A DNA stretch of 64,000 nucleotides from an uncultured bacterium (GTDB lineage: Bacteria; Fidelibacterota; UBA2242), in NCBI GenBank assembly GCA_964576275.1, contig CAZNUN010000003.1, forward strand, positions 69,848 to 133,847, given 5' to 3'. Below the pieces are notes generated by a model that made no database searches, had not been told where the DNA came from, and saw only the letters and a list, made by a program, of their open reading frames with translations. The position numbers and the translations under genes were made by a program. This document shows, in pieces, positions 7,086-54,974 of the stretch (position 1 is the stretch's first letter; every line of letters starts with the position of its first letter).

Positions 7086-7561
7086 TGCGCAAGACCCTGA
7101 TAATTACAGCCTTCAGTTTGCTGGCATTTCTGGTGCAGCTCCTCTTTGGTTCATGGATGACAATCCGGGAAATCAGACCGGATTTTCTCCTGATCGTGGT
7201 GATGTTTATCGGGCGCAATGAAGGTAAAGTCGGCGGGCAGATTTACGGATTTTTAATCGGCCTGATAGCAGATATGATCGGCCTGAGCTCTTTTCTCGGG
7301 TTGTCGGCCTTGTCGAAAACAGTAGCTGGCTTCGGGGCCGGTCTGTTGCGCAAGCGCCGCAACCGCCTGAATCCGGTCATTTTTCATGGGGTTGAGGTCT
7401 TGATTCTTGTGATTCACTTTTCGATTATCTATATGATCAATTTCAATACTATCGATGTTTCGGCCCAGATGATCTTTTTTCAATATATTCTGCCGTCCGT
7501 CCTGTATACCGGACTCTTTTATTTTCTCTTTCAGTATTTTCTTCCGCAAGCTTCGGAATAG
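7082..7561 (+). CDS. mreD: Rod shape-determining protein MreD
   Basis: Polytopic 159-aa membrane protein. Overlaps mreC by 4 nt and precedes mrdA. Confidence 0.75.
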   Translation: MMRKTLIITAFSLLAFLVQLLFGSWMTIREIRPDFLLIVVMFIGRNEGKVGGQIYGFLIGLIADMIGLSSFLGLSALSKTVAGFGAGLLRKRRNRLNPVIFHGVEVLILVIHFSIIYMINFNTIDVSAQMIFFQYILPSVLYTGLFYFLFQYFLPQASE

Positions 7562-7564
7562 ACC

Positions 7565-10601: not shown

Positions 10602-10683
10602 TTTCTGGGTGGCGTCTGAAAATAAAGTTTCTTTTTTACGGTATAATTTTGTAGCTTTAGTCGCATTTTATGCTCTTGATAAT

Positions 10684-11571
10684 ATGAAACAAACAATAGA
10701 ATTTACATCCAAGCTGAGGCCGTTTTTCAGCATTACCTGTGCGCTTATTCTCCTTCTCGCGGTCGGATTCGCCAACCCGCCCGAAAAGAAACTCAGCAAT
10801 GCGGAAATATCCACAAGCCTGGACGATCTTGGAAAGGATATCACTGATCTGAAAACCAAGCTGAATACGCTGACCCGGGTCGTGAACGAGCATACCACCA
10901 AGTTAAAATCGCCGGAGGGCAATCAGCAGATGACCGGGATCAGTCAGGCGATCGAACCTTTGCGGCAGTCGGTTGCCGGTCTGGAGAACCGGATCAACAC
11001 TCTGGCCGCCGAACAGGCTCAGATGCAGAAACGTCTGTTAGCCGCCGAACAGCGCGCCCATTATTCCGACAGTATCAATTTCGAAATCCTTTCACAGCTC
11101 GTAATTCTGGAAAACCGTCTGGTTTCGCTGGGCAATAGTATTAATGAGTATAATGCCGTTACTCAGACTGGACCGCCCGGTCCAGATCGTTCCGTTCCCG
11201 GCGTGGGAAGCGCCTACAAAGACCGCTATCTCATCGCCCTCAGCCTGCACCAGAACGGGAAATTTGAAGAGGCGATCGAATTATTCCGCAAGCTGATCGT
11301 CGACGACCGCACCAACAGCCTGGCTGACAATGCCCAATACTGGATCGGAGAAAGTTATTATTCCATGAAACAATATCAACGCGCGGTCATTGAATTCGAG
11401 AAAGTAAGTGCTTTTTCTAATTCTGATAAAGGTGACGACGCGCAGTATAAAATCGGGCTGTGTTACAAACAGGTGGGCAATCAGGAAAAGTCCCGGGCAG
11501 AATTCCAGAAATTGATTGAACTCTACCCGCAAAGTGAATTCGCTGAAAACGCCAAACAACTAATTAGATAA
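10684..11571 (+). CDS. Secreted coiled-coil plus TPR protein, CpoB/YbgF-like
   Basis: ATG at 10684 gives a signal peptide (MKQTIEFTSKLRPFFSITCALILLLAVGFA). A long coiled coil is followed by a C-terminal YbgF-type TPR domain (DNAQYWIGESYY...DDAQYKIGLCYKQVGN). Confidence 0.6.
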   Translation: MKQTIEFTSKLRPFFSITCALILLLAVGFANPPEKKLSNAEISTSLDDLGKDITDLKTKLNTLTRVVNEHTTKLKSPEGNQQMTGISQAIEPLRQSVAGLENRINTLAAEQAQMQKRLLAAEQRAHYSDSINFEILSQLVILENRLVSLGNSINEYNAVTQTGPPGPDRSVPGVGSAYKDRYLIALSLHQNGKFEEAIELFRKLIVDDRTNSLADNAQYWIGESYYSMKQYQRAVIEFEKVSAFSNSDKGDDAQYKIGLCYKQVGNQEKSRAEFQKLIELYPQSEFAENAKQLIR

Positions 11572-11578
11572 ACAACCT

Positions 11579-12415
11579 ATGATTAAAAGAATTTATTTTT
11601 TAACTGCCGAGATCATTCCTTTTGCCGAAACCTACGATCTGGCTGGCTTCAGCAAGGAAATTCCGGTGGTTTTCAACGAGCGCAAGTACGATTTTCGCCT
11701 GATGATGCCCAAATACAGTTTCATCAGTGAAAGACGCTATATACTGCGTGAAGTCATCCGCCTGCGCGAGATGGATTTAAAATACCGCGGCGAACAGATC
11801 AAGGCTTCGGTTAAATCGGCCTTTATCCCGAATACGAAAGTCCAGGTCTATTTCCTGGAACACCCGTATTTCTACAATAATGCCGATAATGACCTCTATC
11901 CGCTGCACTGTGAATCGGAAGATTGCCTGAATTCGGTGCGGTTCGGTTACTTTGCCTCGGCGGCTTTGGTGACGCTCAATTATTTGCGCTGGAAGCCGGA
12001 AGTCATTATTTGTAATGACTGGCAGATGAGTCTCATTCCGCTTTTGATCAAATCGAACTTGCTGGATAAGGAATATTTTGACGGCGTGAAGATTTTACAG
12101 ATCGTCCACTCCAAATCTACCTACTCTGATTTTGAATTGAACGAGTACCAGAAAATCGGTTTGAATGCCACGGAATTAAAGAACAGTGTCAACGGACATC
12201 TGGATGTTCTGGCCGCCGCGATCCCGATTTGTGATCACGTTCTGGTGATCAACAAAGGTGAAAATTTACTCGAGAAATATCAGAAAGATCCGTTGTTCGG
12301 CGAAATCTTAAAACACGACCGGAAGAAATTTTCTTCCTTCGAATTAAAAGGTGAATCCCCTGAAGATTGGCAAAATTTGGCAGATGAAATCGTTAATATT
12401 ATGGAACGTTTATAA
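11579..12415 (+). CDS. Degenerate stand-alone glycogen-synthase N-domain (GT5) homolog
   Basis: Aligns to the bona fide GlgA at 62904 (IYFLTAEIIPFAE vs IVFVAAEAFPFAK; ICNDWQMSLIP vs HCHDNQTALIP). The catalytic K-x-GGL motif is replaced by ETYDL. The protein ends at 278 aa with no C-terminal GT-B half. Confidence 0.6.
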   Translation: MIKRIYFLTAEIIPFAETYDLAGFSKEIPVVFNERKYDFRLMMPKYSFISERRYILREVIRLREMDLKYRGEQIKASVKSAFIPNTKVQVYFLEHPYFYNNADNDLYPLHCESEDCLNSVRFGYFASAALVTLNYLRWKPEVIICNDWQMSLIPLLIKSNLLDKEYFDGVKILQIVHSKSTYSDFELNEYQKIGLNATELKNSVNGHLDVLAAAIPICDHVLVINKGENLLEKYQKDPLFGEILKHDRKKFSSFELKGESPEDWQNLADEIVNIMERL

Positions 12416-13634
12416 ATCAAATGCGGACCATGCGTGGTCATTTCCTTTACCAGGTAAGTTTTTACATTTACTCTGGGTAATTGCCTTACCCTTTCTGCTC
12501 CTGCCGGGGTGTTCTGAAAAAATCCCCACCTTGCCGCTGGAAAAAAATCTGGTCAGCTTCGATTCCGTCTCAGTCGCGGCGGATTTAATCGCGGATACGA
12601 CCATTTTAGGAGAACCATATGTCGGCTCGAATTCCTATCTGGTGGTGGGCGAGGATGCCAATATCAGCGCCTATGCCTTATTGCTGTTTGAAGAATTAAG
12701 CTCGCCGCTGGATACCATCGCAATCGATAATATACTCAGTTGCGAGCTCGTCCTGCGTACCTCCAGTTATCTGCCCGCCGATACGGCCGCTACTCCCAAT
12801 CTGAGCATGACGATCAGTTCACTGGAAGCTGATGGAGCTGAGGCCTGGACCGAAGACAGTACCAACAGTGCAAATTTCAGTCTCGACGCCTTTACTCAGA
12901 CTGAATGGCACACTTTTACTTATTCAGATACGGATACGCTGATTCTCGACCTGACGGCCTCATTTATCGCCAACTGGCGCGACACCGAAAAGTCTCATTA
13001 CGGCATCGCGATCAGACCCGCACCAGCTTCGGAGGCTGGACTGGGCATCATTTATTCCGGCGAAACCAGTTATTATCCCTATCTGAAGATCAGTTACATC
13101 GATTCGGATGGCGATACATTGACCGCAGCCTATACCACCGAAGAAGATGTGACTATCCTGACGTTTAAAAAGGACCTGAGCCCGGTTCCTCAGCCGCTCC
13201 TGATCAGTTCCGGAATGGCCTCTTTTACATTTCTGAAGTTCAGAGTCGAAGAATTGATCACGGATAAAAACCTTTTAATTGCCGGGGCTAATCTTTACTT
13301 AACCGTCAATCCGGATTTAACCGAAGATTACGGAAAATACTATACGGTCTATATCAGTCTGCTGGATTCGACCGACTGGGACGACCTGGCTTATACGCCC
13401 TCGACCTCGGATTATACCGCCACAATGAGCCGTTACCCGGGAGGTAGTCTTTTTGTGCTGAAGATCCCCAGCACCGTGCAGCTGTTTACCAGCGGATATA
13501 ACGGCAATTTCGGGATTGCCATGTGGATTTCATCCAGTAGTATGTATCCCGGGGTATTAAGTTTCTACCCGACTGAAAGTGCCGATCCGTCGTTGCGTCC
13601 GCATATGGAAATATTAACGATGCAGGAAGAATGA
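12384..13634 (+). CDS. Hypothetical lipoprotein, Ser/Thr/Asp-rich
   Basis: In-frame ATG at 12384. The hydrophobic segment LLWVIALPFLLLPGC ends in a Cys (possible lipobox). No recognisable domain. Start uncertain, since the track begins at 12351. Confidence 0.5.
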   Translation: MKSLILWNVYKSNADHAWSFPLPGKFLHLLWVIALPFLLLPGCSEKIPTLPLEKNLVSFDSVSVAADLIADTTILGEPYVGSNSYLVVGEDANISAYALLLFEELSSPLDTIAIDNILSCELVLRTSSYLPADTAATPNLSMTISSLEADGAEAWTEDSTNSANFSLDAFTQTEWHTFTYSDTDTLILDLTASFIANWRDTEKSHYGIAIRPAPASEAGLGIIYSGETSYYPYLKISYIDSDGDTLTAAYTTEEDVTILTFKKDLSPVPQPLLISSGMASFTFLKFRVEELITDKNLLIAGANLYLTVNPDLTEDYGKYYTVYISLLDSTDWDDLAYTPSTSDYTATMSRYPGGSLFVLKIPSTVQLFTSGYNGNFGIAMWISSSSMYPGVLSFYPTESADPSLRPHMEILTMQEE

Positions 13635-18755: not shown

Positions 18756-20018
18756 ATGAAAAAAATATTCGCCATGCTCGGGATCGGATTGCTCATGACC
18801 GGCAGCGTACTCGCCCAGAGCGAAGCCGGGGCGGTGTGGTTATTGATCAATCCCGGAGCGCGCTATTCCGGTATGGGCGAGGTCGGTGTAGCTATGACCG
18901 ACGACGCCTACGCCAGCTACTGGAATCCGGCAGCGCTGGGATTCCTGCGCGGCCGGGAAGCGGCGCTGACGCACACCAACTGGCTCCCGAACCTGGTCAA
19001 TGACATATACTATGAGTTTTTAGGCTATCGTCAATTTGTAAAAGATGTCGGCACTCTCGGCGGCAATGTTATTCTGATGAATCTCGGCGAACAGACCCGC
19101 ACGGATGAGTACGGCAATGAATTGGGAACCTTTAATTCCTATATGCTGGCCATAACGGGTTCATACGGCACGGCTTTATCGCGTCGATCTTCGCTCGGTA
19201 TCAGTATCAAGATGGTGCATCAGCACCTGACCGACCAGGGCGCCGGCAAGGAAAAAGGAAAAGGCTACTCAACCAATTTTTGCTTTGATGTCGCTTACCT
19301 GAAGCATCAGTTTCTGACCAAAAACCTGACCCTGGGTGTCAATTTTGCCAACATCGGGCCGAAGATCGCCTTCATCGATGTCAATCAGGCCGATCCGATG
19401 CCGACCAATATGAAAGCCGGATTGGCCTATACACTTGACGGCGAATATAATAAGCTGACCATCTCTTACGATGTCAATAAAGTTCTTGTTTCGGCCTATC
19501 CCAACCGCGATATTGACGGCGACGAACGTGTCGGCGGCTACGATGAAAACGGTCATAAGGTCTCCGGCGGTGAATATAATAAGGACGGTCAGCGGGAATA
19601 TGCCCATTCTGACGAATGGTATACCGGTATTTTTACCTCCTGGATCGATGACTGGCTATTAATTTACGATTCCGAGAATGATGGCATCGGCAAAGATGTC
19701 GGCGGTGGTTTGAATCAATATGGTGAAAAGGCCGATACGGATGGTAACACCAATGACGGATCATTGGGCGCCGAATTTAAAAAATTAACTCATAATTTTG
19801 GCATAGAATACTGGTATTCGGATCTGTTCGCGATCCGGGTCGGAGGGATTTATGACAAGACCGGGAACATTACCATGAAAAATGGTAAATGGCCGGTTCC
19901 GACCTTCGGCGCCGGACTGCGCTGGGCCGGAATGGGATTTGACTTCGGTTATACCGCCGGCGAACCCGGACACCCGCGCCAGAATACGATGCTGTTCTCG
20001 ATGAATATCAAATTTTAG
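18756..20018 (+). CDS. T9SS PorV-like (FadL-like) outer-membrane beta-barrel
   Basis: GGAGG RBS and signal peptide. The N-terminal motif GARYSGMGEVGVAMTDDAYASYWNPAAL is characteristic of PorV/LptO-type barrels. The next gene encodes a T9SS CTD cargo protein. Confidence 0.55.
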   Translation: MKKIFAMLGIGLLMTGSVLAQSEAGAVWLLINPGARYSGMGEVGVAMTDDAYASYWNPAALGFLRGREAALTHTNWLPNLVNDIYYEFLGYRQFVKDVGTLGGNVILMNLGEQTRTDEYGNELGTFNSYMLAITGSYGTALSRRSSLGISIKMVHQHLTDQGAGKEKGKGYSTNFCFDVAYLKHQFLTKNLTLGVNFANIGPKIAFIDVNQADPMPTNMKAGLAYTLDGEYNKLTISYDVNKVLVSAYPNRDIDGDERVGGYDENGHKVSGGEYNKDGQREYAHSDEWYTGIFTSWIDDWLLIYDSENDGIGKDVGGGLNQYGEKADTDGNTNDGSLGAEFKKLTHNFGIEYWYSDLFAIRVGGIYDKTGNITMKNGKWPVPTFGAGLRWAGMGFDFGYTAGEPGHPRQNTMLFSMNIKF

Positions 20019-20076: not shown

Positions 20077-23000
20077 ATGCAGATAAATAAATATTTTATT
20101 AACATAATAGTCCTGTTGGCTTTTATAAGCGGATCAGCTGCGGCAATGATGGAGCCGGCTTACCGTATCGCTTCTCCATCTCAGCCGTCGATGGCGATTT
20201 CCAATCCGATCCGGATTTGCGCCCTGCGGATCAGCTTCCTGCCTGATGATGATGAGACCACCACGGGAACCGGACAGTTTCTTACAACGGTAGTTGATCA
20301 TCCCTGCGACGAGTTTGTCGTCGATCCGGCTCCGCATAACCGCGCCTATTTCCAGGATCATATCCGCTCTCTGGCGAATTATTACCAAACCGTATCGGAC
20401 GGGAAGGTAAACATTGATACCCTTAATTCAACGGTCTTTCCTTTAACGGATGACAGCAGTTTCCAGGTCGGTCATGCGATGGCTTATTATCATCCGTTCT
20501 TGGTTGAAGATTCGGTTGATTTACGCCTGAGCGAACTGTTGGTGGATGCCGTGCAGGCCGCCGATCCGGTCGTGGATTTTTCACAATTCGATCTGGTGGT
20601 GGTATTCCATGCCGGGGTCGGTCAGGATTTTGCGATTACGCTCGATCCGACGCCTTATGATATTCCGTCGGCCTATATGAACAAGAATGATTTGAAGGCC
20701 CTGTTGTCTCCCGGCGATCCGGATTTTGAAGGTCTGCCGGTTGAGAACGGGACGGCTTTTGTTACCTGTGGACTGATCCTGCCGGAGAGCCAGAATCATT
20801 TGCTTTACGATAATTACGAAGAAGTTTTCGGCAGTGGTGAATCGGTCTGCGAATATCAGTTCGGGCTGAATGGCACTTTTGCCTTCACCTTCGGTTTTTT
20901 TCTCGGGCTGCCGAGTCTCTATAATACCGAAACCGGCTATACCGGTATCGGCCGTTTCGGTTTAATGGATCAGGGTTCGGCTAACCTGAACGGTTTGGTT
21001 CCGTCTGTTCCCAACGCCTGGGAGCGTGTTTTTCTGGGTTGGGAAACGCCGGCCGTGGTCGGAAAATTTGCGGATGTCAGTCTTGAAAAAGCCGGTTCCG
21101 GCGCCGGCACGACCGTCTGGAAAATTCCTATCAACTCCCATGAATATTTTTTAATTGAAAATCGCTGCGCCTGGTTTCGCCCAGGAGTCAGTCTCGACAG
21201 CCTCCAGTATCAGATTTACATGGCGGGTGGCGAAAAGAACTGGCCGTCGGCCTTTCCGCTGATTCGGGACACCCTGAAAGCCGTGTTTTCTACGGAAACC
21301 GGAGTGATGTTATCCGTTCCGCACTATGATTACGGGATTCCCGGCTCGGGGCTCCTGATCTGGCATATTGACGAGACAATTATCAACGCCAATCTGTCCA
21401 CCAACCGGGTCAATGTCGATCGCGATCGGCGCGGCGTTGATCTGGAAGAAGGCGATGGCGCTCAGGACCTCGGCTATGACGCCGACATTCTGAATGAAGA
21501 CGTCGAAGACGGCTGGTTTTTCGATCCGTGGTTTGCCGGCAACGACGGCTTCATCGATCTTAATCCGGAATATGAGTTGGATGCGGAAAAACGGGTGGGC
21601 TTTACCCCGTACACCAATCCGTCATCCTGCAGTAACAGTTTTGCGTTTACCGGGATTTATGTTGACAGCATCGGACCAGCCGGCGAAACGATGACTTTTC
21701 GGATCACCTTGAAAAATGCGCTGGATAATTTTCCACTGATTTTTGCGAGCCAGCCGGAAGAAATCTTACCCATTGATCTGAATCCAGCCGATCAAACGGA
21801 AGAAATTCTGGTAATTGGCGACAGTCTGTGGATTTTCAGCCCTGACGGTGAACGCGTGGCGGTGTCTCCGGCCGATTCCATCAATGTGATTAGTGACAGC
21901 CTGATATTGTACGGTCTCGGGGGCGAATCCCTGTCAGCCCGCCAACTGGCCGCTGACGGACAAATTATGCTGATTGACACTCTCTACATGCCAGGATGGC
22001 AATTTTACGGCCGACCGTTACCGGTCAAGACCGGCTTGCTGTCCGCCGCGCAAAACAGCGCCCGGCAGAATTTTCTAATCTACTATCAACCGGAACTGCA
22101 TACCGTTTCGGCTTTTTCGATCGATGAGTCCATCGAAAAAATAATCGGCGGCGATGACAATCTGTTTGCGGCTACCAGTGACGAGCGGGTCAGGCGCATC
22201 CGGCTGGATCCATTTTCGGCGGAGGTCGTGAGCAACCTGCCAAAGGCGGGCGACGGCACGCTGGCGACGGCCTTTATTAACGCGGATACCTTTCCCGATC
22301 TGATCCATTGTAGTGATTCGCTCCTGACGCTGATTCTGGATATTGGAAGCGACAATGAGACCACCCTGAGCAAGATGGTGAAATTAAACGGTAATTTAGC
22401 CCTGGCTGACCTTGACGGTGACGGTAAAATCGAGATCATCGTCGCCGGCTCCAATCAGATTTATGCGTACAATGAAGAACTCACGCTTGAAAGTAATTTT
22501 CCGGTCAGCCTGCCGTTCATTCTGGGCGGCGATCAATTCGGCGTAGAATTGCTATCCGCCGATCTGGATGGCGACGACAACGGTGATATTATCATCAATA
22601 CCTCGGCGGCGCTGCTGGCATTTAATTACAAAGGCGAGCTGCTGGAAAATTTTCCTAAAGTGGTCGACTCCTCTCCAAAGCCATTGACCGGGATGCTGTT
22701 CAATACGCCTCACGGACTGGCTTATCTGGCTGCTATGCAGGCAGACGGTGCCATCGATTATTACAATCGGTTGATGGCCACTATCATCACATCTCACGCT
22801 CACGAAACGGGTGACTGGATCTGTTATGGAGGCGGCGGCAACCGCCAATTTTATTGTGCTACTGCTTCGCAGAGCGGCGCTGTTGAAGATGAGACGCTTT
22901 TAGATCAAGCCCGAACATTTAACTGGCCGAATCCGGTAAAAGACGACCACACCTTTATCCGCTATTTCCCAAATCACAATTGCGATATCACGATCACTGT

Positions 23001-23181
23001 TTATGATTTGGCGGGAAGTCTGATCGCCAGCTTCAAGGATTCGGCGCCGCTGATCGGCGAACCTAACGAGAAAGAGTGGAACACCGCCGGGGTGGCCAGC
23101 GGAGTTTATTTCGCTGTGGTGAAGGCGAAATCCGGTGCTAAAAGCGAGTCCAAGATCGTTAAAATTCTGGTGGTGAATTAA
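20077..23181 (+). CDS. T9SS-secreted protein (1034 aa): M6 immune-inhibitor-A-like domain with degenerate active site, FG-GAP/VCBS-like repeats, and a T9SS C-terminal sorting domain
   Basis: Signal peptide is present. The M6 motif HEYGHNLGLPDEY is replaced by FTFGFFLGLPSLY (nt 20881-20922). Repeats are of the form DLDGDGKIEIIVAG / DLDGDDNGDIIIN. The C-terminal 85 aa match the Por_Secre_tail (WPNPV...ITITVYDLAG...GVYFAVVKA...KIVKILVV). Confidence 0.7.
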   Translation: MQINKYFINIIVLLAFISGSAAAMMEPAYRIASPSQPSMAISNPIRICALRISFLPDDDETTTGTGQFLTTVVDHPCDEFVVDPAPHNRAYFQDHIRSLANYYQTVSDGKVNIDTLNSTVFPLTDDSSFQVGHAMAYYHPFLVEDSVDLRLSELLVDAVQAADPVVDFSQFDLVVVFHAGVGQDFAITLDPTPYDIPSAYMNKNDLKALLSPGDPDFEGLPVENGTAFVTCGLILPESQNHLLYDNYEEVFGSGESVCEYQFGLNGTFAFTFGFFLGLPSLYNTETGYTGIGRFGLMDQGSANLNGLVPSVPNAWERVFLGWETPAVVGKFADVSLEKAGSGAGTTVWKIPINSHEYFLIENRCAWFRPGVSLDSLQYQIYMAGGEKNWPSAFPLIRDTLKAVFSTETGVMLSVPHYDYGIPGSGLLIWHIDETIINANLSTNRVNVDRDRRGVDLEEGDGAQDLGYDADILNEDVEDGWFFDPWFAGNDGFIDLNPEYELDAEKRVGFTPYTNPSSCSNSFAFTGIYVDSIGPAGETMTFRITLKNALDNFPLIFASQPEEILPIDLNPADQTEEILVIGDSLWIFSPDGERVAVSPADSINVISDSLILYGLGGESLSARQLAADGQIMLIDTLYMPGWQFYGRPLPVKTGLLSAAQNSARQNFLIYYQPELHTVSAFSIDESIEKIIGGDDNLFAATSDERVRRIRLDPFSAEVVSNLPKAGDGTLATAFINADTFPDLIHCSDSLLTLILDIGSDNETTLSKMVKLNGNLALADLDGDGKIEIIVAGSNQIYAYNEELTLESNFPVSLPFILGGDQFGVELLSADLDGDDNGDIIINTSAALLAFNYKGELLENFPKVVDSSPKPLTGMLFNTPHGLAYLAAMQADGAIDYYNRLMATIITSHAHETGDWICYGGGGNRQFYCATASQSGAVEDETLLDQARTFNWPNPVKDDHTFIRYFPNHNCDITITVYDLAGSLIASFKDSAPLIGEPNEKEWNTAGVASGVYFAVVKAKSGAKSESKIVKILVVN

Positions 23182-26100: not shown

Positions 26101-26216
26101 CGATCAGTCTGGATTGGGTTTACGGTTTGGACGCCTTCGATATCGTCAGCGGTTCGAAAACCTATTCGTATGGTCACGAATGGCGAACTTACGTCACAAT
26201 TTTATTCGGTTTATAA
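23181..26216 (+). CDS. Secreted 1011-aa fusion of an HExxH metallopeptidase-like domain, TolB-like PD40 beta-propeller repeats, and a C-terminal Omp85/BamA-like beta-barrel
   Basis: Signal peptide is present. HEFTH lies at nt 23565-23579. PD40 repeats include YSRASDPD, NPALSPDGQMMAY, HWSPDGQTIAF and NPYFSPDGAWLYY. The C-terminal roughly 400 aa show beta-strand periodicity and an Omp85 loop-6-like GGMPGLRGY motif. The start overlaps the upstream stop (TAATG). Confidence 0.65.
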   Translation: MIGRMRWAAGFALLNLLFFFDQASAQFGTFNHPELRWLTFETAHFKVHYHTGAEWTARRTAEVAETVYGPVTEFYHFEPDEKTALIIKDTDDISNGAAYYYDNKIEIWATPLDFPMRGNHDWIRDVLTHEFTHIISLQKAMKYGRSLPAFYFQVIDNEPEKREDVIYGYPRVIASYPIAGMVIPMWLAEGMAQYMFPGTSNDFWDTHRDMLLRDRVLHKDLLTLREMGSFGKPGLGNETVYNQGYAFVRYLAERFGTPTIPNLSQELSKPQRMSIETALKNVTGVEADQIYNDWKTELEKKYFRQTEILRANEKPGEAILAEGTMQMAPEWSGDSLIYYLSNKGRDYYSQTGLYVYDVKTHKSRLLIPRIYSRVAVAPDGKCIYYSRASDPDKHGSVFFDIYSWDTRKRKEKRITKGLRAYNPALSPDGQMMAYVTGRDGTSNLCVMDMNTKSTRQVTHFSDGVEVFTIHWSPDGQTIAFDYLTGHGRDLALIEVATDSLRIFNNAAFDTRNPYFSPDGAWLYYASDETGVYNIYRQALTDGEKQILTNVTGGAFMPTVNARGELLYAILDNSAFKIARMNNPEPYDPALAAYYDYAKPAMPVSELKPISFPQPQKYKDQFAKMFFLPRILIEYGTIKPGFYCYSNEILNRFNIFGGASVNRIMDRDLVLMLEYHQWEPTFFLEFYNISRHIFNQHTTYAARPVTMDYTFFLTEAYAGISRPLDGFNNLRLDLKWARYRTAAEETIASENYRGSLSYDYYHGVDFQLRWQLRKILPTVNEDTNPDNGFVLDTYISRNYDKFIQGFEVNADYSTLQVDFRNNYYWRIEHEGNWFHKYPVLRNLVGTLKWRAGWISKPDVDSFFNFFAGGMPGLRGYPYYSLEGRNLFSLHYTWRVPIFRQKNFQLMTFNLHNAFLATYIEAGNAWNKVSGFAGLDWEQFKAQPVSVLRSIAGDFKRDVGLQLRMSGHSFYAYPTSISLDWVYGLDAFDIVSGSKTYSYGHEWRTYVTILFGL

Positions 26217-26226
26217 AGGAGGTCAC

Positions 26227-27126
26227 ATGAAGCCCAGATATTTGCAAATGGCGCTGCTGTTGAGTCTGATGTTGCCGCTCTGGCTTTTCGGGCAGCCGCT
26301 GGCCGGCGACAATCCGAACATTACGGAGCGCGAGCGGGCTGTCTATAATTTAAAATATGCCCAGACCGAGCCGGATACTTTTGAATTCAGCTATCAAAAA
26401 TCACCTGGTCTGGCTTTTCTGCTATCGGCGGCCGTGCCGGGCGCCGGTGAATTTTATTCGGGAGCCAAATACCGGGCCGCGGCTTTCTTCGGCGTGGAGG
26501 TAATTTCCTGGATCGTTTATTTCAATCGTAAGAGTGTCGGCGAGCAACTCGAAAAAGATTACAAAAAGTGGGCCGACACTTACTGGAATGCCTGGAATTG
26601 GTATGCCAACGGTCTGACTCATCGGCCTTATCTGGGTATCCCCGATTCCACGGAAGAAGCCTCGCATCTGATTTACTTTGAATATAATGGGGAAGAGTAT
26701 CCATCCAACACCGATTATCTTGATGAAAACCTCAATGGCTGGGAATCGCTGCTGGAATCCGGCGAATTGGCTCCGATCAAGACCCGCGATTATTATGAAA
26801 ATATCGGCAAATACGATCAGTTCGCTTCCGGATGGGCGGATTTTAATACGATCGAAGCCGATATGGATACGAGCATTATTCCAAACAGCGCCAGGCGCTC
26901 GAATTACCTCAATCAGCGCTACGATTCCAACCAGGCTTTAAAGATGGCGACTAACTTTGCCACGGTGGTCATGTTCAATCACCTGATCAGCGCCTTTCAT
27001 GCCCAGATTGCGGCTAAACAATATCGCGGACCTGATAAAAAAGAAATTACCTGGAATGTGGGTCTGGTGACAGACTATACGTATAAAAATCCCATTCGCG
27101 GGTTGACGCTCTCCTTTGCATTTTAA
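26227..27126 (+). CDS. Hypothetical secreted / outer-membrane protein
   Basis: ATG at 26227 follows an AAGGAGG RBS. Signal peptide is present. The C-terminus ends in aromatic residues (LTLSFAF), as outer-membrane proteins often do. No known domain recognised. Confidence 0.5.
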   Translation: MKPRYLQMALLLSLMLPLWLFGQPLAGDNPNITERERAVYNLKYAQTEPDTFEFSYQKSPGLAFLLSAAVPGAGEFYSGAKYRAAAFFGVEVISWIVYFNRKSVGEQLEKDYKKWADTYWNAWNWYANGLTHRPYLGIPDSTEEASHLIYFEYNGEEYPSNTDYLDENLNGWESLLESGELAPIKTRDYYENIGKYDQFASGWADFNTIEADMDTSIIPNSARRSNYLNQRYDSNQALKMATNFATVVMFNHLISAFHAQIAAKQYRGPDKKEITWNVGLVTDYTYKNPIRGLTLSFAF

Positions 27127-32489: not shown

Positions 32490-32510
32490 AAAAATAACAG
32501 TGTTATTTTT
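32490..32510. promoter_or_regulatory. Perfect 21-bp palindrome AAAAATAACAGTGTTATTTTT, 5 nt upstream of the sensor kinase start
   Basis: Ten-bp arms around a central G, seen directly in the sequence. Candidate operator. Confidence 0.35.
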
Positions 32511-32515
32511 AAAGG

Positions 32516-34195
32516 ATGAATTTCTCAGGTAAAGAATTTAAACTGCAACCGCGCACTGCGATTTCGGTTTTTGTTATCCTGCTTTTCCTGTTGCTGGCCT
32601 CAGCCTATCTCGAATTTCAGAATCGTAAAAAAGCCACCCTGGAATTAATGGCGCTGATGTCCGAGAATTTATCCCAGACCATTCGGCAGGCGGCCGTCAA
32701 TTCTATTCTGAGTAATGATGCCATGGAAGACAAATTGGCCAACCGTACGTTCGACGCTCTGCGCCGAATCGCCGCCAATCCTAAAACAGTACAAAAGTAT
32801 GGCAATTCAGGCGAACATCTTGCAAACGAATATGGATTGGTCGGACTAAAGGTTATCGGAAGTTCCGGTAACCTGGTGTGGGTAACACAATCGACTATTT
32901 ATGATTTTCCAGGTACCGACGAACTGGCAGAATGGTTGGCAGCTGCTGAACCGCAAACGGTTTTTGGGTTAGAGTCGGGTGTGCTGGCGGTAGGTTGGCG
33001 TCTTGCGGACGGTGGTGCTCTGATTGGCTATGCAGACGCCATGGATTTACTCGCATATCGCCGTAAAAGCGGTCTCGGAAGTTTGATAAATGGTATTTCG
33101 CAAAACAGTGCGGTGACTTATATCGCTATCCAGGATTCGCTTGGAATTTTAGCCGCCACTGCCAACGTCGAAACCCTGCCGTCCATCGCCAGCGATAGAT
33201 TTTTACAATCAGTCATGGATTCGTCCAATTTTCAATGGCGCATAAGCAGTTTTCAGGAGCGCCGGATTTTTGAGGGTATTCTGCCTTTCGATATTTTGGA
33301 TGCCTCGTACGGCTTAATCCGGATTGCTCTGGATTACAAACCGATTCAGGCTATTCAAACCGCGGCGGTTCGGCAGGGAGCGTTTCGTCTGGGAATTCTG
33401 TTGGTCATTGGATTTTTACTGGCGGCGTTTTCGATTACCACCCAAAATGTGCGTTTACTGCAGGCCGAAAAAGAGCACATCACCAGCGAAGTCTATCGCC
33501 TGCAGGACGACCTGCGACGACGTGAAAAATTAAGTGCGATGGGCGAACTGGCCGCCGGCGTCGCCCACGAAATCCGCAATCCGCTGAATGCCATTTCGAT
33601 GACTGTTCAACGCCTGGCGCGGGAATTTCCGGCGGCGGAAGGCGCCGATGAACAGTCTGAACTGATCAAAATTGTTCGGCGTGAAATCGACCGGATTAGC
33701 GCCATTATCCGCCAATTTTTAGAGTTCGCTCGCCCGGCGCCTCTCGTTAAAAAACCGGCCCTGGTTGAGGAGCTGATTGCCCAAGTCGTGGCGCTCTATA
33801 CGGCTAGGGCGGCCAGCCGGCAGGTGAAAATCGAGTGGGAAAATCACCGGTCTGTAAAAGCCTACCTCGATGCCGATAAAATCACCCAGTGTTTAGTTAA
33901 TTTACTGGAAAATGCGCTGGATGCCGTCGAAATTGGCGGAATCGTGCAAATCCGCCTTGAGACGCCCCGCCGCAAATATTTTTCCATTATTGTGGAGGAT
34001 AACGGAACCGGTATTCCGGCGGAAAACCAGAGCCGGATTTTCAACCTTTATTTCACCACCAAACCCAACGGAACCGGACTGGGACTGGCGCAGGTTTTAC
34101 AAATCGTGGGCGAACATGACGGCACGGTTGAAGTTTTCAGCGAACCCGGCCGGGGCACTCGTTTCATATTAACAATTCCATTCGGGAAGGAATAA
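32516..34195 (+). CDS. Sensor histidine kinase with a periplasmic sensor domain between two TM helices
   Basis: TM1 (residues 20-40), a periplasmic domain of roughly 250 aa, then TM2. HisKA H-box (AAGVAHEIRNPLNAI) and HATPase_c N, G1 and G2 boxes are present. Confidence 0.85.
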   Translation: MNFSGKEFKLQPRTAISVFVILLFLLLASAYLEFQNRKKATLELMALMSENLSQTIRQAAVNSILSNDAMEDKLANRTFDALRRIAANPKTVQKYGNSGEHLANEYGLVGLKVIGSSGNLVWVTQSTIYDFPGTDELAEWLAAAEPQTVFGLESGVLAVGWRLADGGALIGYADAMDLLAYRRKSGLGSLINGISQNSAVTYIAIQDSLGILAATANVETLPSIASDRFLQSVMDSSNFQWRISSFQERRIFEGILPFDILDASYGLIRIALDYKPIQAIQTAAVRQGAFRLGILLVIGFLLAAFSITTQNVRLLQAEKEHITSEVYRLQDDLRRREKLSAMGELAAGVAHEIRNPLNAISMTVQRLAREFPAAEGADEQSELIKIVRREIDRISAIIRQFLEFARPAPLVKKPALVEELIAQVVALYTARAASRQVKIEWENHRSVKAYLDADKITQCLVNLLENALDAVEIGGIVQIRLETPRRKYFSIIVEDNGTGIPAENQSRIFNLYFTTKPNGTGLGLAQVLQIVGEHDGTVEVFSEPGRGTRFILTIPFGKE

Positions 34196-34196
34196 T

Positions 34197-35543
34197 ATGT
34201 TTAATCTGAACGTGGCGGTAATCGACGATGATGCCACCCAGCGGGAACTCCTAAGCGGGTTCTTCCGCAAATTGGGTTGCACGGTGTTTGCCTGTGCTTC
34301 GGGCGAAAACTGTTTGTCGGTCATCGAAAAACAATATCTCGATGTGGTGCTGACCGATTTCCGGATGCCGGGCATGAGCGGCCACGAAATTTTAAACAAA
34401 GTCAAAGCCATCAATCCGGAAATTCAGGTAATTATCATGACGGCGTTCGGAACTATCGAGGATGCCGTGACTGCCATGCGTCAGGGAGCCTGGGATTATC
34501 TGGCCAAGCCGGTTGATCTGGATGAACTCGAACTGAAACTGCGTAAAATCGCTGAACACAATGCCCTCGTACGTGAGAACCAATTGTTAAAATCGCGAAT
34601 TGCCGAAGCCGAGCTGCCCACCGAAATTATTTTTAAAAGTAAGGCAATGGCGGAAGTACTGAATATCGTCGCCCGTGTCAGTGACAGTCAGGCCGCGGTT
34701 TTGATTCGGGGCGAGAGCGGCACCGGCAAAGAGCTGATTGCCCGGGCAATTCATCAGGCTTCGGCGCGCCGCACCAAACCTTTTGTGGCGATCAACTGCG
34801 CCGCCATTCCGGAAACCCTTTTCGAGAGTGAAATATTCGGACATGAAAAAGGAGCTTTTACCGGAGCAACCGAGCGCAATCGCGGACGGCTGGAGGCCGC
34901 GGAGGGCGGAACGCTCTTCCTGGATGAAGTCGCCGACATTCCACTCAATTTTCAGGTCAAATTACTACGGGTTTTACAGGAAAAAGAATACCAGCGCCTC
35001 GGTTCTACCCAAACTCTGCAGGCGGACGTCCGGATTGTGTCGGCGACCAATAAAAATATTCAGCAGCTGATTGAAGAGGGTAAATTCCGGGCGGATTTGT
35101 TCTTCCGGCTGAATGTCATTCCACTCGAAATTCCGCCTCTGCGTGAACGCCGCGAGGACATCGTTCCGCTGGTGCAGCATTTCATTGCGAAACATGCCCG
35201 GCTGAACAACCGTCCGATACAAAACATCTCAGCCGAAGGTCTGAATTCGCTGCTGCGCTACGATTATCCGGGCAACGTGCGCGAACTGGAAAACATTATC
35301 GAACGCGCTGTTATTCTGGCTCGCGAAACGACGCTTACGACGGCCGATTTGCCGTTGCAACCGATTGCTCAATCTGCCGTTTCACTCTCCAGGCCGCTCA
35401 ATGAACAGGTCGAAGACCTCGAACGCGAATTGATTCGCCAAGCCTTGCAACAGACCGGCAATGTGCAGATCCGCGCGGCGCAATTGCTGGGGCTTTCCGA
35501 GCGGGTTTTGCGGTATAAAATCGAAAAATATAAACTCAATTAA
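34197..35543 (+). CDS. Sigma-54-dependent response regulator (NtrC family)
   Basis: REC domain (D in [13 protein letters not shown]), AAA+ sigma-54 activation domain ([15 protein letters not shown]; GAFTGA), and a C-terminal Fis-type HTH. Confidence 0.9.
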
Positions 35544-35671
35544 GATCGACATTATTGTCGAATTACCGACAAAATTGGCGAAATATTGCTTCAGCGCCTT
35601 GACCATTAAAAACACCTTTGTTATTTATTTTATCGTCGGGAAATGATAAATTGGAATATGATTATTCTCCT

Positions 35672-35688
35672 TTGGCATGGCTATTGAA
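35672..35688 (+). promoter_or_regulatory. Candidate sigma-54 (-24/-12) promoter, TGGCAT-N5-TTGAA
   Basis: TGGCATGGCTATTGAA at 35673-35687 matches TGGCAC-N5-TTGCW at 10 of 12 positions with correct spacing. It lies about 55 nt upstream of the 35742 gene and directly downstream of the NtrC-family regulator. Confidence 0.45.
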
Positions 35689-35741
35689 TTAATCGTAGCC
35701 AGAAATTTGAAATTGAGAACACAAAGACAAAGGAGAAAAAA

Positions 35742-36206
35742 ATGAAGAAACTCAATTTGATCGCATTTTTAACACTCAGCCTCTTGGTTGTTTTGGTAAC
35801 TATGCCGGTTGGTCTGAGGGCTCAGACTTCGACTAAGCAGCACGGCTCCCACTTCGTGGATACCGATGGCGACGGGTACAATGACAACGCTCCGGACGCA
35901 GACGGTGACGGGATTCCGAACGGACAGGATCAGGATTATGTACGCTCCGGTAGTGGTCGCGGAAAAGGTTTTGTGGATGCCGATGGCGACGGTTTCAACG
36001 ATAACGCTCTGGATGCTGACGGCGATGGAATTCCGAACGGACAGGACTCAGACTATCAACGCCCCGCCGACGGAACCGGTCAGAAACATATGTACGGCAA
36101 TCGCCACCAAACCCAGGCTTCTGAAAGTCAGGCGCCTGCCAATTCAAACTGCAATGACAATTCCACCCGCTCCCGAAAAGGTAATCGCGGTGCCGGCAAT
36201 AAATAA
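35742..36206 (+). CDS. Small secreted protein with tandem DxDGDG (thrombospondin type 3 / EF-hand-like) calcium-binding repeats
   Basis: Signal peptide is present. Two near-identical units of about 37 aa (FVDxDGDG[YF]NDNAxDADGDGIPNGQDxDY) are also repeated at the nucleotide level. Confidence 0.65.
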   Translation: MKKLNLIAFLTLSLLVVLVTMPVGLRAQTSTKQHGSHFVDTDGDGYNDNAPDADGDGIPNGQDQDYVRSGSGRGKGFVDADGDGFNDNALDADGDGIPNGQDSDYQRPADGTGQKHMYGNRHQTQASESQAPANSNCNDNSTRSRKGNRGAGNK

Positions 36207-36277
36207 ACAGGCTTGCCAGATGAAAACGGTCGACGGAATCTCCGTCGGCCGTTCCGGCTTTTAATGAGGAGAATGCC

Positions 36278-36886
36278 ATGAAATTAATTCCGCACTTATT
36301 GATGGTTTTTACAATTGTTGCGACGTTAGGTTTCAGCCAATCCACGCCGAATGAAGCCCGGTCGGTGCGTGGATTCATTGATGAAAATCATGATGGAATC
36401 AATGATTGGTTCCGGGATGCCAATGGTGACGGAATCAACGATATTGATCAAAAATCCTACCGGCACACATTCCGTTTTCAGGATCAAGACCGCGACGGTC
36501 GCAACGATCTTTTTATGGATGAAGACGGTGATGGGGTCAATGATCTGAATGCGAAATTTGGCGATGCTAATAAAGATGGCTGGAGTGAAAATATCATTGA
36601 CAACGACCACAATTGGATCAACGATATCACCGGTGAAATTTATACTCGTCGTAATCTGGGCGGCTCCCGCTACGGTTTTGTGCTGGAAGAATATCGGGAA
36701 AAGTTGAGCGATTTTACCGATCAGGATGGCGACGGCCAGGATGACCGGCTAGCCAAGCGTGAGGGTTTGCAGGAACAACGCATGGATCGTTTTATCGATG
36801 CGGATGGCGACGGCGTCTGTGATCAGCGCGGATTTTACCGGCATCGCAAAGGCAGCAGTAGTCGTGGCTCCGGGAGAAAACCATGA
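36278..36886 (+). CDS. Second secreted Asp-rich DxDGDG calcium-binding repeat protein
   Basis: Signal peptide is present. At least five DxDGDGxND-type loops (DANGDGINDID; DEDGDGVNDLN; DQDGDGQDD; DADGDGVCD). Confidence 0.65.
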   Translation: MKLIPHLLMVFTIVATLGFSQSTPNEARSVRGFIDENHDGINDWFRDANGDGINDIDQKSYRHTFRFQDQDRDGRNDLFMDEDGDGVNDLNAKFGDANKDGWSENIIDNDHNWINDITGEIYTRRNLGGSRYGFVLEEYREKLSDFTDQDGDGQDDRLAKREGLQEQRMDRFIDADGDGVCDQRGFYRHRKGSSSRGSGRKP

Positions 36887-38025
36887 GCCTGAACCGACGC
36901 ATTTTCTTTTGGGCCGGCCTGCTGGCAGTCTTTTTTAATTCCCAAGCTGGAGCCCAATGGCAACTTTCGCTCGATACATATACCGGCCGGGACAACAATC
37001 TATTACGTTATTACAATCCGGTCGCGGATGCCATTTTTTCACCTCAAATCGAAATAGCCTATCTGGGCGCCCAAACCCGGTTTTATTACAATTACGACCA
37101 GACCCGGATTATCGAAAATGACCAGTATAATTTTTCCGTGCAGCAGGCCGGCGTCGACTTTACAGCCGGAAACGCGATGAAGATTGGTCACTATCTGGGC
37201 GCCAATTTGAACCGGCGGTCGAATCAGCCGGATTACGATTATTTCGATTACTGGAAAGCCGAAGGCGTTTACAATTTCAAATATTTCCCGGTTGACTGGG
37301 TTTTATTTAAAGGCGAAATAGTGGCGTTTTATAAGAAATTCGACGAAGAACCGGCCTGGAATCACCTGGAAACGAACCTGAATTTTTCCGGCAGTATTTT
37401 TTTGCCGACCCGTACAACCATTCGCCTAAGCCTTTTCGGACTATTGCGGGATTTTAGTTCGTATACGACCCGGGATTCTGTTTCCACAACTGCGGAACTG
37501 TCTACGCTAAGGCAATTAGTGGGGGTGGTGCGACTGGCCCAATCGTTTGGAGCGAGAGTCGGCGGTTACAGTGATTTTCTCTATCGTTATAATCCTTCGG
37601 AAGGCAATCCGTACCAGGTCGAAATTACCGCATTTAGTCCGATTGACGATTATTTCGGTTATAAAGGATACCGGTGGACGAATGCCCTGAAATGGAAAAT
37701 TAATTCACAAGTCTGGATGAAAATCGCCGGCGCGGTCTATACGAACACTTACCTGAACCGGCCGGTTTATGAATTCGATTTTGAGAGTGGCACCTGGGTT
37801 ACGGATGCGGATGACAATTACATCATGCTGTCTGAAAACCGCCGCGACCAGGGTTACACCGCTGGAATTTCAGCCGGCCTGACATTTCGTAATGTTTTTA
37901 ACCGGGCCGCCAATCTCGAAATCATCGGATCTTTCGATTACTCTCATGTTGAATCCAACGACAATTATTTTGATTATAATGACCGCTCTTTCGGTGTACA
38001 AATCCGGTATGATTTACAATGGTGA
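36883..38025 (+). CDS. Outer-membrane beta-barrel protein, hypothetical
   Basis: Signal peptide (LLAVFFNSQAGAQW), amphipathic beta-strand periodicity, and a C-terminal aromatic residue (IRYDLQW). Overlaps the upstream gene by 4 nt. Confidence 0.6.
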   Translation: MSLNRRIFFWAGLLAVFFNSQAGAQWQLSLDTYTGRDNNLLRYYNPVADAIFSPQIEIAYLGAQTRFYYNYDQTRIIENDQYNFSVQQAGVDFTAGNAMKIGHYLGANLNRRSNQPDYDYFDYWKAEGVYNFKYFPVDWVLFKGEIVAFYKKFDEEPAWNHLETNLNFSGSIFLPTRTTIRLSLFGLLRDFSSYTTRDSVSTTAELSTLRQLVGVVRLAQSFGARVGGYSDFLYRYNPSEGNPYQVEITAFSPIDDYFGYKGYRWTNALKWKINSQVWMKIAGAVYTNTYLNRPVYEFDFESGTWVTDADDNYIMLSENRRDQGYTAGISAGLTFRNVFNRAANLEIIGSFDYSHVESNDNYFDYNDRSFGVQIRYDLQW

Positions 38026-38163: not shown

Positions 38164-38195
38164 GATAAGCAATTAAGCAATTCTGTATTTGCATA

Positions 38196-38227
38196 GACCC
38201 GCCCGAAAAAGCGGGTTTTTTGTTTTT
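38196..38227 (+). terminator. Attenuator terminator: GACCCGCCC-GAAAAA-GCGGGT followed by TTTTTTGTTTTT
   Basis: A 6-7 bp GC-rich stem plus a U-tract ends 37 nt before the trpB2 ATG. The upstream GGGCGG (38147-38152) can pair alternatively with the CCGCCC arm as an antiterminator. Confidence 0.65.
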
Positions 38228-53576: not shown

Positions 53577-54974
53577 ATGGAGACACTTGATCAAGCAACT
53601 CTGCAACAATATGTTGACAACAATCCTGACAGCCATCTGTTACCACGACTGGCCGCGTTTTTCCTGGCGGAAAATGACATCCGGGCGGCAACTGATCTGT
53701 GCCGGCAGGATCTGACAATTCATCCTCAATCTGCGCTTGCTCATTTTATTTGGGCTCTGGGGGCCGAAGCTCAGGACGATATCGACCTGGCAGTGGAACA
53801 TTTCCAGGCCGTCGTGCGCTGCGATGCTTATTTCCTGTCGGCTTATTATAAATTGGTTAAATACAGCCAGGGTTATTTGACTCCCCAACAGCTGAAAAAT
53901 TGTTATGAACAAATCTGCCGTCTGAATCCTTTCGATGCCGATATCGCTGCCAAACTGGCCGCGCTGCCTGAGGATCTCGATATGCTGGCGGTTCAGATGA
54001 AAATCAAGCCTCAGCGCCAACCCAAAACAACTCCTCCTCCGGCTGCCGAACCCACCGCCACCCAAGCAGCGGTTGAACCGGTTCCAGCGGAAGAACCACC
54101 GACTCCGGATTTTTCGAGGCCGGACACAACCCCGGAAGTCGATATAGCCGGCGGTGCCGGACGCCTGGAAAAGTTTTTTAATTCCATGAAAGAAGCTGCC
54201 GATCTGCATAAGCAGCCGGTTGTCGCTTCTAAACCGGAAATTCCTGAGGAGGAAGCTCACTTCGGTCCGCTGGATCTGTCTGAGCCGGATGAAACACCGG
54301 CTGAACCCGAACCTGGGATGGTTTTCGATGAACCCGCATCGGTTCCGTCTCCGGACGCTGCCGAAAAAGCGGAAGGTTCTTCGATCAGCGATTTTTTCAG
54401 CCGGTTGCGCAATAAACCACTCGAGGAAGTTCAGAAGGAAAACTGGATGGCCGAACATGCCATGGCAAGCGTTCAGGCAGAATCACCCGCGCCTAAAGTA
54501 GAATCTCCCAAACCAACCAGTCTGAAAATTGAGGAGCCTCCGATCGAGTCGAATCCGGACATAATTGCCGGAAAACTGGAGAAATTGCTGGCGCCTGAGC
54601 CGGCCCCTCATATCTCCGAACAAATATCCGAAGAGTCCGTGACGCCTGAGATTTCAGCTGAGTCGGAAAACCCGGAGAGTCAACCGGTGGTAACCGCCGA
54701 AAAGCCCGCGGAGACCGCCAAACCATCCGCTCCTAAAAAGCGCCCCCCGCGTCAGACCAAAAAAACCAGCCCGGCTGCCAACAATATTACGTTTCCGATA
54801 CCGACCTGGACTTTGGTGGATGTGCTCACAAAGCAGAAACTTTTCGAGCAAGCCTTGAGTATTCTGGATATAATCGAAGCCAAGTCGAAGAACGAAAAAG
54901 ATCTGGAAAAAGTCCAGACCAGCCGTGCCGAAATCATCAGAAAAATGGCTGAGGAACAATCCGGGGAAGCCTGA
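53577..54974 (+). CDS. Hypothetical protein with an N-terminal TPR-like region and a long Pro/Glu/Ala-rich low-complexity segment
   Basis: An AAGAGGG RBS is present. The 465-aa ORF has acidic PE-rich repeats (PEPAP, EPEPG, ESPAPKVESPKP). No catalytic motifs. Confidence 0.5.
   Translation: METLDQATLQQYVDNNPDSHLLPRLAAFFLAENDIRAATDLCRQDLTIHPQSALAHFIWALGAEAQDDIDLAVEHFQAVVRCDAYFLSAYYKLVKYSQGYLTPQQLKNCYEQICRLNPFDADIAAKLAALPEDLDMLAVQMKIKPQRQPKTTPPPAAEPTATQAAVEPVPAEEPPTPDFSRPDTTPEVDIAGGAGRLEKFFNSMKEAADLHKQPVVASKPEIPEEEAHFGPLDLSEPDETPAEPEPGMVFDEPASVPSPDAAEKAEGSSISDFFSRLRNKPLEEVQKENWMAEHAMASVQAESPAPKVESPKPTSLKIEEPPIESNPDIIAGKLEKLLAPEPAPHISEQISEESVTPEISAESENPESQPVVTAEKPAETAKPSAPKKRPPRQTKKTSPAANNITFPIPTWTLVDVLTKQKLFEQALSILDIIEAKSKNEKDLEKVQTSRAEIIRKMAEEQSGEA

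Follow-up and report, generated by a model that had tools for sequence, protein, structure and literature searches.

A 64-kb stretch of contig CAZNUN010000003.1 (64,000 nt, positions 69,848 to 133,847; referred to below as the window), from an uncultured bacterium whose closest named relatives are Candidatus Marinimicrobia, carries a cassette of five co-directional open reading frames (ORFs), all located on the plus strand, that code for a histidine kinase (HK), an NtrC-type response regulator (RR), two small acidic proteins (small1 and small2) and an outer-membrane beta-barrel. Judging by comparison with related loci, the cassette is a real unit kept across several poorly studied bacterial phyla. 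Conserved sequence signals make it highly probable that its genes form a regulatory chain, in which the kinase acts on the regulator, the regulator acts through a palindrome on a sigma-54 promoter, and the promoter drives the small1-small2-barrel operon. What we establish are the gene content and linkage of the cassette, its promoter and palindrome, the conserved domain by which the kinase senses and the exchangeable nature of the operon's first gene. The general kind of system, i.e., an envelope response run by a sigma-54 two-component system and including a secreted accessory protein, is already known; what is new in the present version, as far as can be read from the sequence, are two conserved unnamed components and a new sensor domain. 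The five genes, whose co-directional arrangement is as described in the original prediction made for this DNA, are as follows.

32516-34195, plus strand: HK, histidine kinase, 559 amino acids.
34197-35543, plus strand: RR, NtrC-type sigma-54 enhancer-binding response regulator (REC, AAA+ with GAFTGA, HTH_8), 448 amino acids.
35742-36206, plus strand: small1, acidic protein with a signal peptide and DxDGDG loops, 154 amino acids.
36278-36886, plus strand: small2, acidic protein with a signal peptide, member of a conserved unnamed family, 202 amino acids.
36883-38025, plus strand: outer-membrane beta-barrel of 16 strands, with a signal peptide and C-terminal YDLQW, 380 amino acids.

Small2, the barrel and the sensor domain of the kinase are covered by no Pfam, NCBIfam or PDB entry and are unnamed in every source. 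A full-text literature search retrieved no paper joining “enhancer-binding protein” with “LTXXQ” and none joining Marinimicrobia with either sigma-54 or rpoN; when sigma-54, ZraP, envelope stress and outer membrane were searched for jointly, only a Salmonella review surfaced.

The related loci used for comparison (designated by codes such as L005, L007 and L012) are mostly metagenome-assembled, and their taxonomic labels are therefore only as reliable as the binning. The same five-gene order is found in Marinimicrobia loci, where the barrel is only 34-44% identical to the window barrel and the flanking genes vary (amino-acid permease and PALP; methyltransferase and alpha-amylase; MFS and YajC). 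At least six lineages besides Marinimicrobia carry the cassette: linked genes for a kinase, a regulator, one or more acidic proteins and a barrel are present in Latescibacteria, Calditrichaeota, Glassbacteria, Gemmatimonadaceae, Cytophagia/Bacteroidetes, Ignavibacteria and unclassified metagenome-assembled genomes (MAGs). Conservation of the neighbourhood, which had been proposed earlier as a check, is thus observed both in Marinimicrobia, with differing flanks, and in several other lineages. Tracing of the small2 family also led to loci in a MAG labelled Hyphomicrobiales and in unclassified bacteria; we doubt the “archaeon” label attached to one small2 relative. In the loci traced in this way, a small2-type gene adjoins a barrel homologue (hhalign probability 98.3-99.8%; hidden Markov model scan), and in most of them a sigma-54 regulator and a kinase are located within a few kb; neither was seen within the stretch examined in L011, L014 and L015. 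Small2-like matches in Deltaproteobacteria/Desulfuromonas (L017-L020) were rejected as members of the module, since no barrel gene was found in those loci, of which L020 was read in detail.

In some lineages the two-component pair lies upstream of the operon and is read in the same direction; in others it lies downstream and is convergent with the operon. Since its position and orientation differ in this way, the linkage of the pair to the operon has outlasted rearrangement. The constant part of the cassette consists of small2 and the barrel, which are always present; the small2 stop codon and the barrel start codon overlap as ATGA in at least nine loci, the window included. Barrel identity between lineages is 14-25%, which makes a single recently transferred element unlikely.

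RR matches the Pfam families Response_reg, Sigma54_activat (E 3.8e-73), AAA_lid_14 and HTH_8, and its GAFTGA loop is intact, in agreement with its earlier description as an NtrC-type sigma-54 activator. The regulatory elements found upstream of small1 are listed below.

35546-35561, no strand assigned: perfect palindrome TCGACATTATTGTCGA, predicted enhancer, 112 nt upstream of the -24 box.
35566-35581, no strand assigned: CCGACAAAATTGGCGA, candidate second, degenerate regulator site, read from the sequence.
35630-35643: TTATCGNCGRGAAA element, third conserved element (at about 6722-6737 in L005 and about 6571-6585 in L007).
35673-35688, plus strand: sigma-54 type -24/-12 promoter TGGCATggctaTTGAA, 69 nt upstream of the small1 start codon.

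The reference pattern of sigma-54 -24/-12 promoters is TGGCAC-N5-TTGCW. The window promoter is composed of TGGCAT (35673-35678), a spacer of five nucleotides and TTGAA (35684-35688); the element reported in the original prediction is therefore present, with an end that had been placed one base short. On its own the motif is not significant: 0.58 occurrences are expected by chance in the window, and 43 of 100 shuffled sequences contained at least one match. What makes the window promoter convincing is that the motif recurs at the equivalent place in related loci: 13 out of 17 carry TGGCAY-N5-TTGH at a distance of 32-110 nt upstream of the output operon's first gene (the chance rate of this pattern is estimated at ca. 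0.002 per 300-nt upstream region). In the window and at the equivalent sites of 12 loci the -12 element reads TTGA, TTGT or TTGC, i.e., where a GC dinucleotide is usual, its C is variable here.

The exact palindrome TCGAC-N6-GTCGA occurs a single time in the 64-kb window. In 12 of 13 related loci, from different phyla, one or two copies of it, often two, precede the promoter. The palindrome is thus probably the regulator-binding enhancer, and its conservation indicates one common DNA specificity for the regulators of all these loci. As far as its sequence goes, the spacing between palindrome and promoter is the layout expected of an enhancer-dependent sigma-54 promoter. It is possible that CCGACAAAATTGGCGA is a second regulator site; a similar sequence, CCAACAAAATTGTCGC, is present in L005 at the equivalent relative position. 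In Marinimicrobia loci the TTATCGNCGRGAAA element, which contains a TCGNCG half-site, precedes the -24 box by ca. 40 nt; it could serve as an additional half-site for the regulator or be recognised by a different factor. The conserved promoter and palindrome lend strong support to the sigma-54 dependence that was predicted earlier.

One may ask whether the cassette is a functional unit at all, or an ordinary two-component system that happens to lie beside unrelated low-complexity, Asp-rich ORFs and a generic porin. The chance expectation of the promoter motif given above is consistent with such an explanation, as is the occurrence of DxDGDG repeats in unrelated proteins, for example, in L020. 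However, the linkage, the promoter, the palindrome, the sensor domain and the ATGA overlap are kept across phyla despite rearrangements, and we consider chance adjacency exceedingly improbable.

The most informative observation concerns the first gene of the output operon, which is variable. In the window, small1 contains four DxDGDG loops in two repeats of ca. 39 amino acids, followed by a basic, Gly/Arg-rich tail with one conserved Cys; its mature pI is 4.6, Asp accounts for 16-17% of both small1 and small2, and small1 has no lipobox. In the original prediction the two small proteins were said to be built almost entirely of DxDGDG loops. The loops and the signal peptides are indeed there, but the statement is slightly overstated, since non-repeat segments and basic Gly/Arg-rich tails are present as well. 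The score of small1 for the Pfam family TSP3_bac is 18.0 bits, with a cut-off of 25, and its orthologue in L011 matches TSP_3 with E 0.15; neither small1 nor small2 matches EF-hand, dockerin or Excalibur, or any NCBIfam model. No other Pfam match and no PDB or fold match was obtained for the small proteins, and the outcome that had been named earlier as speaking against the prediction, their assignment to a known family of defined function, did not occur. Orthologues of small1 are found in L005, L007, L009 and L011, and the first gene in Marinimicrobia, Calditrichaeota, Glassbacteria and L037 codes for tandem repeats of the DxDGDG/DxDGDGIPN type followed by a Gly/Arg-rich tail.

In L010, L012 and L038, the small1 slot is filled by a CpxP/ZraP-like protein of the LTXXQ/Metal_resist type. 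The first gene product of L012 contains repeated LTxxQ, scores 40.3 bits for LTXXQ (PF07813; cut-off 24.3) and can be aligned at this motif with E. coli ZraP (E 0.001). That of L038 reaches 28.0 bits for Metal_resist (PF13801; cut-off 29.2), and L010 gives a weaker signal. Both the L010 and the L038 protein are hybrids, with one DENADGI loop at the start and an RGG-rich tail at the end. Acidic loop repeats and CpxP/ZraP-type helices thus interchange, and even combine, at one regulated position, and this variability points to a ZraPSR-like envelope- or metal-stress logic.

Two RNA-level elements were identified in the output operon.

36226-36252, plus strand: 12-bp stem-loop separating small1 from small2, probably a partial terminator or mRNA-stabilising hairpin.
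38195-38218, plus strand: terminator-like hairpin and T-run (8 pairs, 5 GC, then TTTTGTTTTT), the end of the operon.

The 77-nt stretch between small1 and small2 has a minimum free energy of -28 kcal/mol (z -3.2). Strong stem-loops are found at the equivalent place in L005 (z -5.1) and in L007 (z -5.6, followed by a U-run). The position of the stem-loop 3' of the small1 gene suggests that the output of small1 exceeds that of small2 and of the barrel. DxDxDG is a general calcium-binding motif, and its presence in small1 and small2 suggests that both proteins may bind calcium or metal. Small1 is presumably periplasmic; conceivably, the small proteins could be located at the surface, as was originally envisaged.

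HK matches the Pfam families HisKA and HATPase_c and contains hydrophobic segments at about 14-32 and 284-302. These two segments leave a domain of ca. 255 amino acids on the periplasmic side, close to the ca. 250 residues predicted earlier. For the 320 N-terminal amino acids of HK (first transmembrane (TM) segment, sensor, second TM segment), homology extends to all kinases linked to the module, with E values of 1e-16 to 1e-68. No Pfam family and no PDB match by sequence was found for the sensor. Sub-threshold matches to sCache_3_2 are present in the membrane-proximal half of four of nine members of the sensor family, and the sensor is family-specific and probably Cache/PDC-like. The kinases outside Marinimicrobia that were covered by the Pfam search also carry cytoplasmic PAS domains. 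The closest NCBIfam models of HK are AtoS and ZraS, both far below cut-off; RR is likewise below the equivalog cut-offs for AtoC, NtrC and ZraR.

In the periplasm, ZraP is the accessory protein of the ZraPSR system, whose promoters are sigma-54 dependent. ZraPSR is a zinc-responsive envelope-stress system and a functional homologue of CpxPAR (PMC12314577). We tentatively favour the reading, drawn by analogy, that the module has the wiring of ZraPSR or Cpx and probably also their way of working, i.e., as a self-contained unit of envelope signalling during metal or envelope stress. The two have in common a membrane kinase whose sensor lies in the periplasm, an NtrC-type regulator (RR is 43% identical over its full length to E. 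coli ZraR), a sigma-54 promoter and a small secreted protein, and some of the related loci carry a genuine LTXXQ/Metal_resist protein in the accessory slot. According to this scheme, HK would read a periplasmic signal, most likely a divalent-cation or envelope-integrity cue, by means of its ca. 255-amino-acid sensor and phosphorylate RR, which would bind TCGAC-N6-GTCGA and open the sigma-54 promoter of the small1-small2-barrel operon. Small1 would be exported by Sec and, given the stem-loop that follows its gene, made in excess; it would act as a periplasmic acidic cation-binding buffer or accessory protein, a role that in other phyla would be played by a ZraP/CpxP-type LTXXQ protein. Small2 and the barrel, whose amounts would be coupled by the ATGA overlap, would form an outer-membrane pair, in which the barrel would hold the acidic small2, display it or let it pass.

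Several observations weigh against this analogy. Neither HK nor RR of the window is an equivalog of its Zra counterpart: HK reaches 217 bits against the ZraS equivalog (cut-off 479) and RR 419 bits against that of ZraR (cut-off 760). The HK sensor, at ca. 255 amino acids, is only doubtfully related to that of ZraS, the hhalign match to the ZraS N-terminus (probability 43%, E 2.5e-4) being limited to the membrane-proximal half and the second TM segment. The window small1 has no LTXXQ or Metal_resist match in Pfam and carries DxDGDG loops where ZraP has LTXXQ helices, and the window output gene is not divergently arranged, unlike in ZraPSR. There is no counterpart of small2 or the barrel in ZraPSR or Cpx, so the conserved core of the cassette is left unexplained by the analogy. 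No RpoN box was seen in the 64-kb window. Finally, a kinase with two TM segments and a Cache-like sensor of this size also fits nutrient sensors, such as DctB.

The last point leads to another explanation, according to which the Cache-like sensor detects a small-molecule or ionic nutrient, as in DctB/DctD, and induces the barrel as a substrate-specific uptake channel, with the acidic proteins as its periplasmic capture or binding partners. The two TM segments, the sensor with its weak sCache_3_2 matches and the sigma-54 regulator do fit nutrient-sensing pairs. However, no inner-membrane transporter or catabolic gene is conserved nearby, the flanks being different in every lineage, and neither the CpxP/ZraP-type first gene nor the tight coupling of small2 and barrel is explained by an uptake function. 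We therefore regard a regulated channel as quite improbable.

Small2 contains seven DxDxDG loops and a degenerate one, has a mature pI of 4.65 and lacks a lipobox. A lipoprotein nature of the family was rejected, as a lipobox-like string occurs in just 7 of 120 members, where it lies within an ordinary signal peptide. The family, which has neither a Pfam domain nor a name, comprises 490 clusters at 90% identity, and an alignment of 55 sequences contains 34 invariant columns. It has its own non-repeat motifs, Y.H.F.F, NDITG (found in 114 of 120 members) and G.RYG...EE, and the last 25 amino acids have a median net charge of +5. In the AlphaFold2 model, the core (residues 31-160) mostly has a predicted local distance difference test (pLDDT) value >90 and almost no secondary structure; neither a PDB match by sequence nor a fold match was found for small2. 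The protein resembles TSP3, dockerin, EF-hand-like and Excalibur proteins in its repeated D-x-D-x-D-G-x-x-D/N loops, high Asp content and confidently modelled core almost devoid of secondary structure. It is unlike them in that no repeat model reaches threshold and no fold is matched, and it differs from TSP3-type repeats by its non-repeat motifs.

A Desulfuromonas lipoprotein of 430 amino acids (L020, 7641-8933) is made of GFVDxDGDGINDNFxDxNGDGICD repeats, which are the loop-pair unit of small2. This larger protein has only the repeat in common with small2, and L020 was therefore rejected as a module; no barrel and no sigma-54 system were found near its gene. The repeat unit of L020 and small2 seems to be of a widespread type for which Pfam has no model.

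The barrel was modelled by AlphaFold2 from an alignment of 26 sequences (pLDDT 88.9, pTM 0.79). The model has 16 strands and starts directly after the signal peptide, in accordance with the earlier assignment of this protein, ending in YDLQW, as an outer-membrane barrel. Its family comprises 482 representative clusters at 50% identity (E<=1e-3); an extended profile search yielded a single cluster that an initial search had missed. Nearly all members are 350-430 amino acids long, align end to end and consist of the barrel only, and the names given to them in the sources are all “hypothetical protein”. The most conserved motif, NPSEGNPY..EI..FSPIDDYFGY, is located in a long loop between strands 11 and 12, which is the sole poorly modelled part of the barrel (pLDDT <50). 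The FSPIDDYFG string (37633-37659 in the window, barrel residues 251-259) recalls loop L6 of TpsB/Omp85 transporters by its position, but no sequence link to that loop was found. As a rough estimate from sequence phase, the barrel has a polar lumen of mixed charge and strongly acidic outer loops. A physical complex of small2 with the barrel may be envisaged.

The window barrel has no Pfam match, SlipAM included, and no NCBIfam match, and no member of its family matches a PDB entry by sequence. Among 120 barrel relatives, SlipAM is the only recurrent Pfam family, being matched by 19 of them at E<=0.01 (best 7.5e-9). Three relatives exceed the gathering cut-off of 22 bits (L029, 29.0; P0204, 27.5; P0167, 24.0), of which L029, from Bacteroidetes, is a full-length homologue of the window barrel family (probability 98.3%). 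All SlipAM matches are restricted to the C-terminal half of the profile (positions ca. 152-288 of 288). This distant tie and the CpxP/ZraP-type small1 slot in other phyla are two links that were absent from the original prediction.

SlipAM (PF04575) is the outer-membrane protein of Slam/type 11 secretion. The matches thus bring up a rival to the ZraPSR-like reading, namely that the barrel is a non-proteobacterial Slam/DUF560 relative without a tetratricopeptide repeat (TPR) domain that carries small2 and possibly also small1 through the outer membrane. On the cell surface or beyond it, the acidic proteins would then serve, for example, as cation scavengers, as a calcium-bridged coat or as factors of adhesion or mineral interaction, and the sigma-54 two-component system would set the timing of export. 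As in type 11 loci, the outer-membrane barrel is encoded beside small secreted proteins. According to PMC12282271, type 11 cargo genes adjoin the barrel gene, and the cargo includes metal-binding proteins. The recurrence of SlipAM and the full-length homology of L029 speak for the same explanation.

The window also points to a type 9 secretion system. A PorV homologue (18756-20018; PF19572, 99 bits) is followed by a 1034-amino-acid protein (20077-23181) with a Por_Secre_tail C-terminal sorting domain (CTD), and we infer from these two genes that the organism has a type 9 system. Yet small1 and small2 contain no type 9 CTD, so, if they do reach the surface, they need a route other than type 9.

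On the other hand, most of the features that define Slam systems are missing. The SlipAM matches come from a minority of the barrel relatives, without the window barrel itself, and cover only half of the profile. Slam-type barrels are 14-stranded, and PF04575 also catches 16-strand PgaA homologues (PMC8406197), so the 16 strands predicted here weaken the connection. The window barrel has no periplasmic N-terminal TPR domain, and the C-terminal 8-strand barrel that is the hallmark of known cargo is found neither in small2, whose model is essentially without strands, nor in small1, which consists of repeats and a tail. The type 11 papers cited here (PMC8406197 and PMC12282271) describe the system only in Proteobacteria, whereas the loci considered here belong to the FCB group and candidate phyla; one of the two has no mention of sigma, two-component, calcium or Bacteroid, and the other none of Bacteroidetes. 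In addition, translational coupling and the hairpin before small2 favour similar amounts of small2 and barrel, not those of a bulk cargo.

Because these other defining features fail, we treat type 11-like export as a serious rival and do not assign the barrel to the Slam family. That the barrel exports small2 in this manner seems possible, though less likely than not. A more elaborate form is somewhat more doubtful still, although we do consider it: small2 and the barrel would represent a new non-proteobacterial type 11-like branch, in which a TPR-less, 16-strand Slam-related barrel displays or releases small2 without known cargo signals, under sigma-54 control and with a ZraP-like accessory protein that feeds back on the sensor.

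Other 16-strand export barrels were also compared. A PgaA-type polysaccharide export porin was rejected, as hhalign against the E. coli PgaA barrel gave a probability of 0.3% and no pgaBCD neighbours are present in any locus. Compared with PgaA and the TpsB proteins (FhaC, CdiB), the barrel described here has neither POTRA nor TPR domains. Unlike for TpsB proteins, no tpsA-type neighbours were found, and there was no Pfam match to ShlB or Bac_surface_Ag.

In two of the related loci, further genes follow the module. L036 (Glassbacteria, 6670-10665) and L037 (a JGI locus, 9953-12509) both contain genes for a multihaem cytochrome (C554/NNT-like, 453 amino acids) and a 393-amino-acid protein of no known kind after the module. 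In L036, genes for an encapsulated ferritin and an encapsulin shell are located between the module and the cytochrome. These neighbours may reflect an iron or redox context, or be a coincidence. Elsewhere in the window, the ORFs at 26170-27126 (318 amino acids) and 53577-54974 (465 amino acids) have no Pfam match at E<=1e-5, and no tRNA genes or Rfam matches were found in the 64 kb.

The HK sensor domain, small2 and the barrel represent three unnamed families. They occur jointly, along with a regulator of their own, in several phyla of which few or no members have been cultured; among these are Marinimicrobia, Latescibacteria, Calditrichaeota, Glassbacteria and KSB1, and the set further includes MAGs with the labels Gemmatimonadaceae, Cytophagia and Ignavibacteria. 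Because the code, palindrome plus sigma-54 promoter, is readable from the sequence, the regulon can be predicted in any such genome and traced in metatranscriptomes. If the module does serve a cation or envelope-stress response, it would show how the outer membrane is protected in these uncultured groups. If, instead, the barrel exports the acidic protein, type 11-like secretion would reach new phyla and a new class of cargo, and an outer-membrane secretion system would be extended beyond Proteobacteria, the sole phylum for which the type 11 papers cited here describe it.

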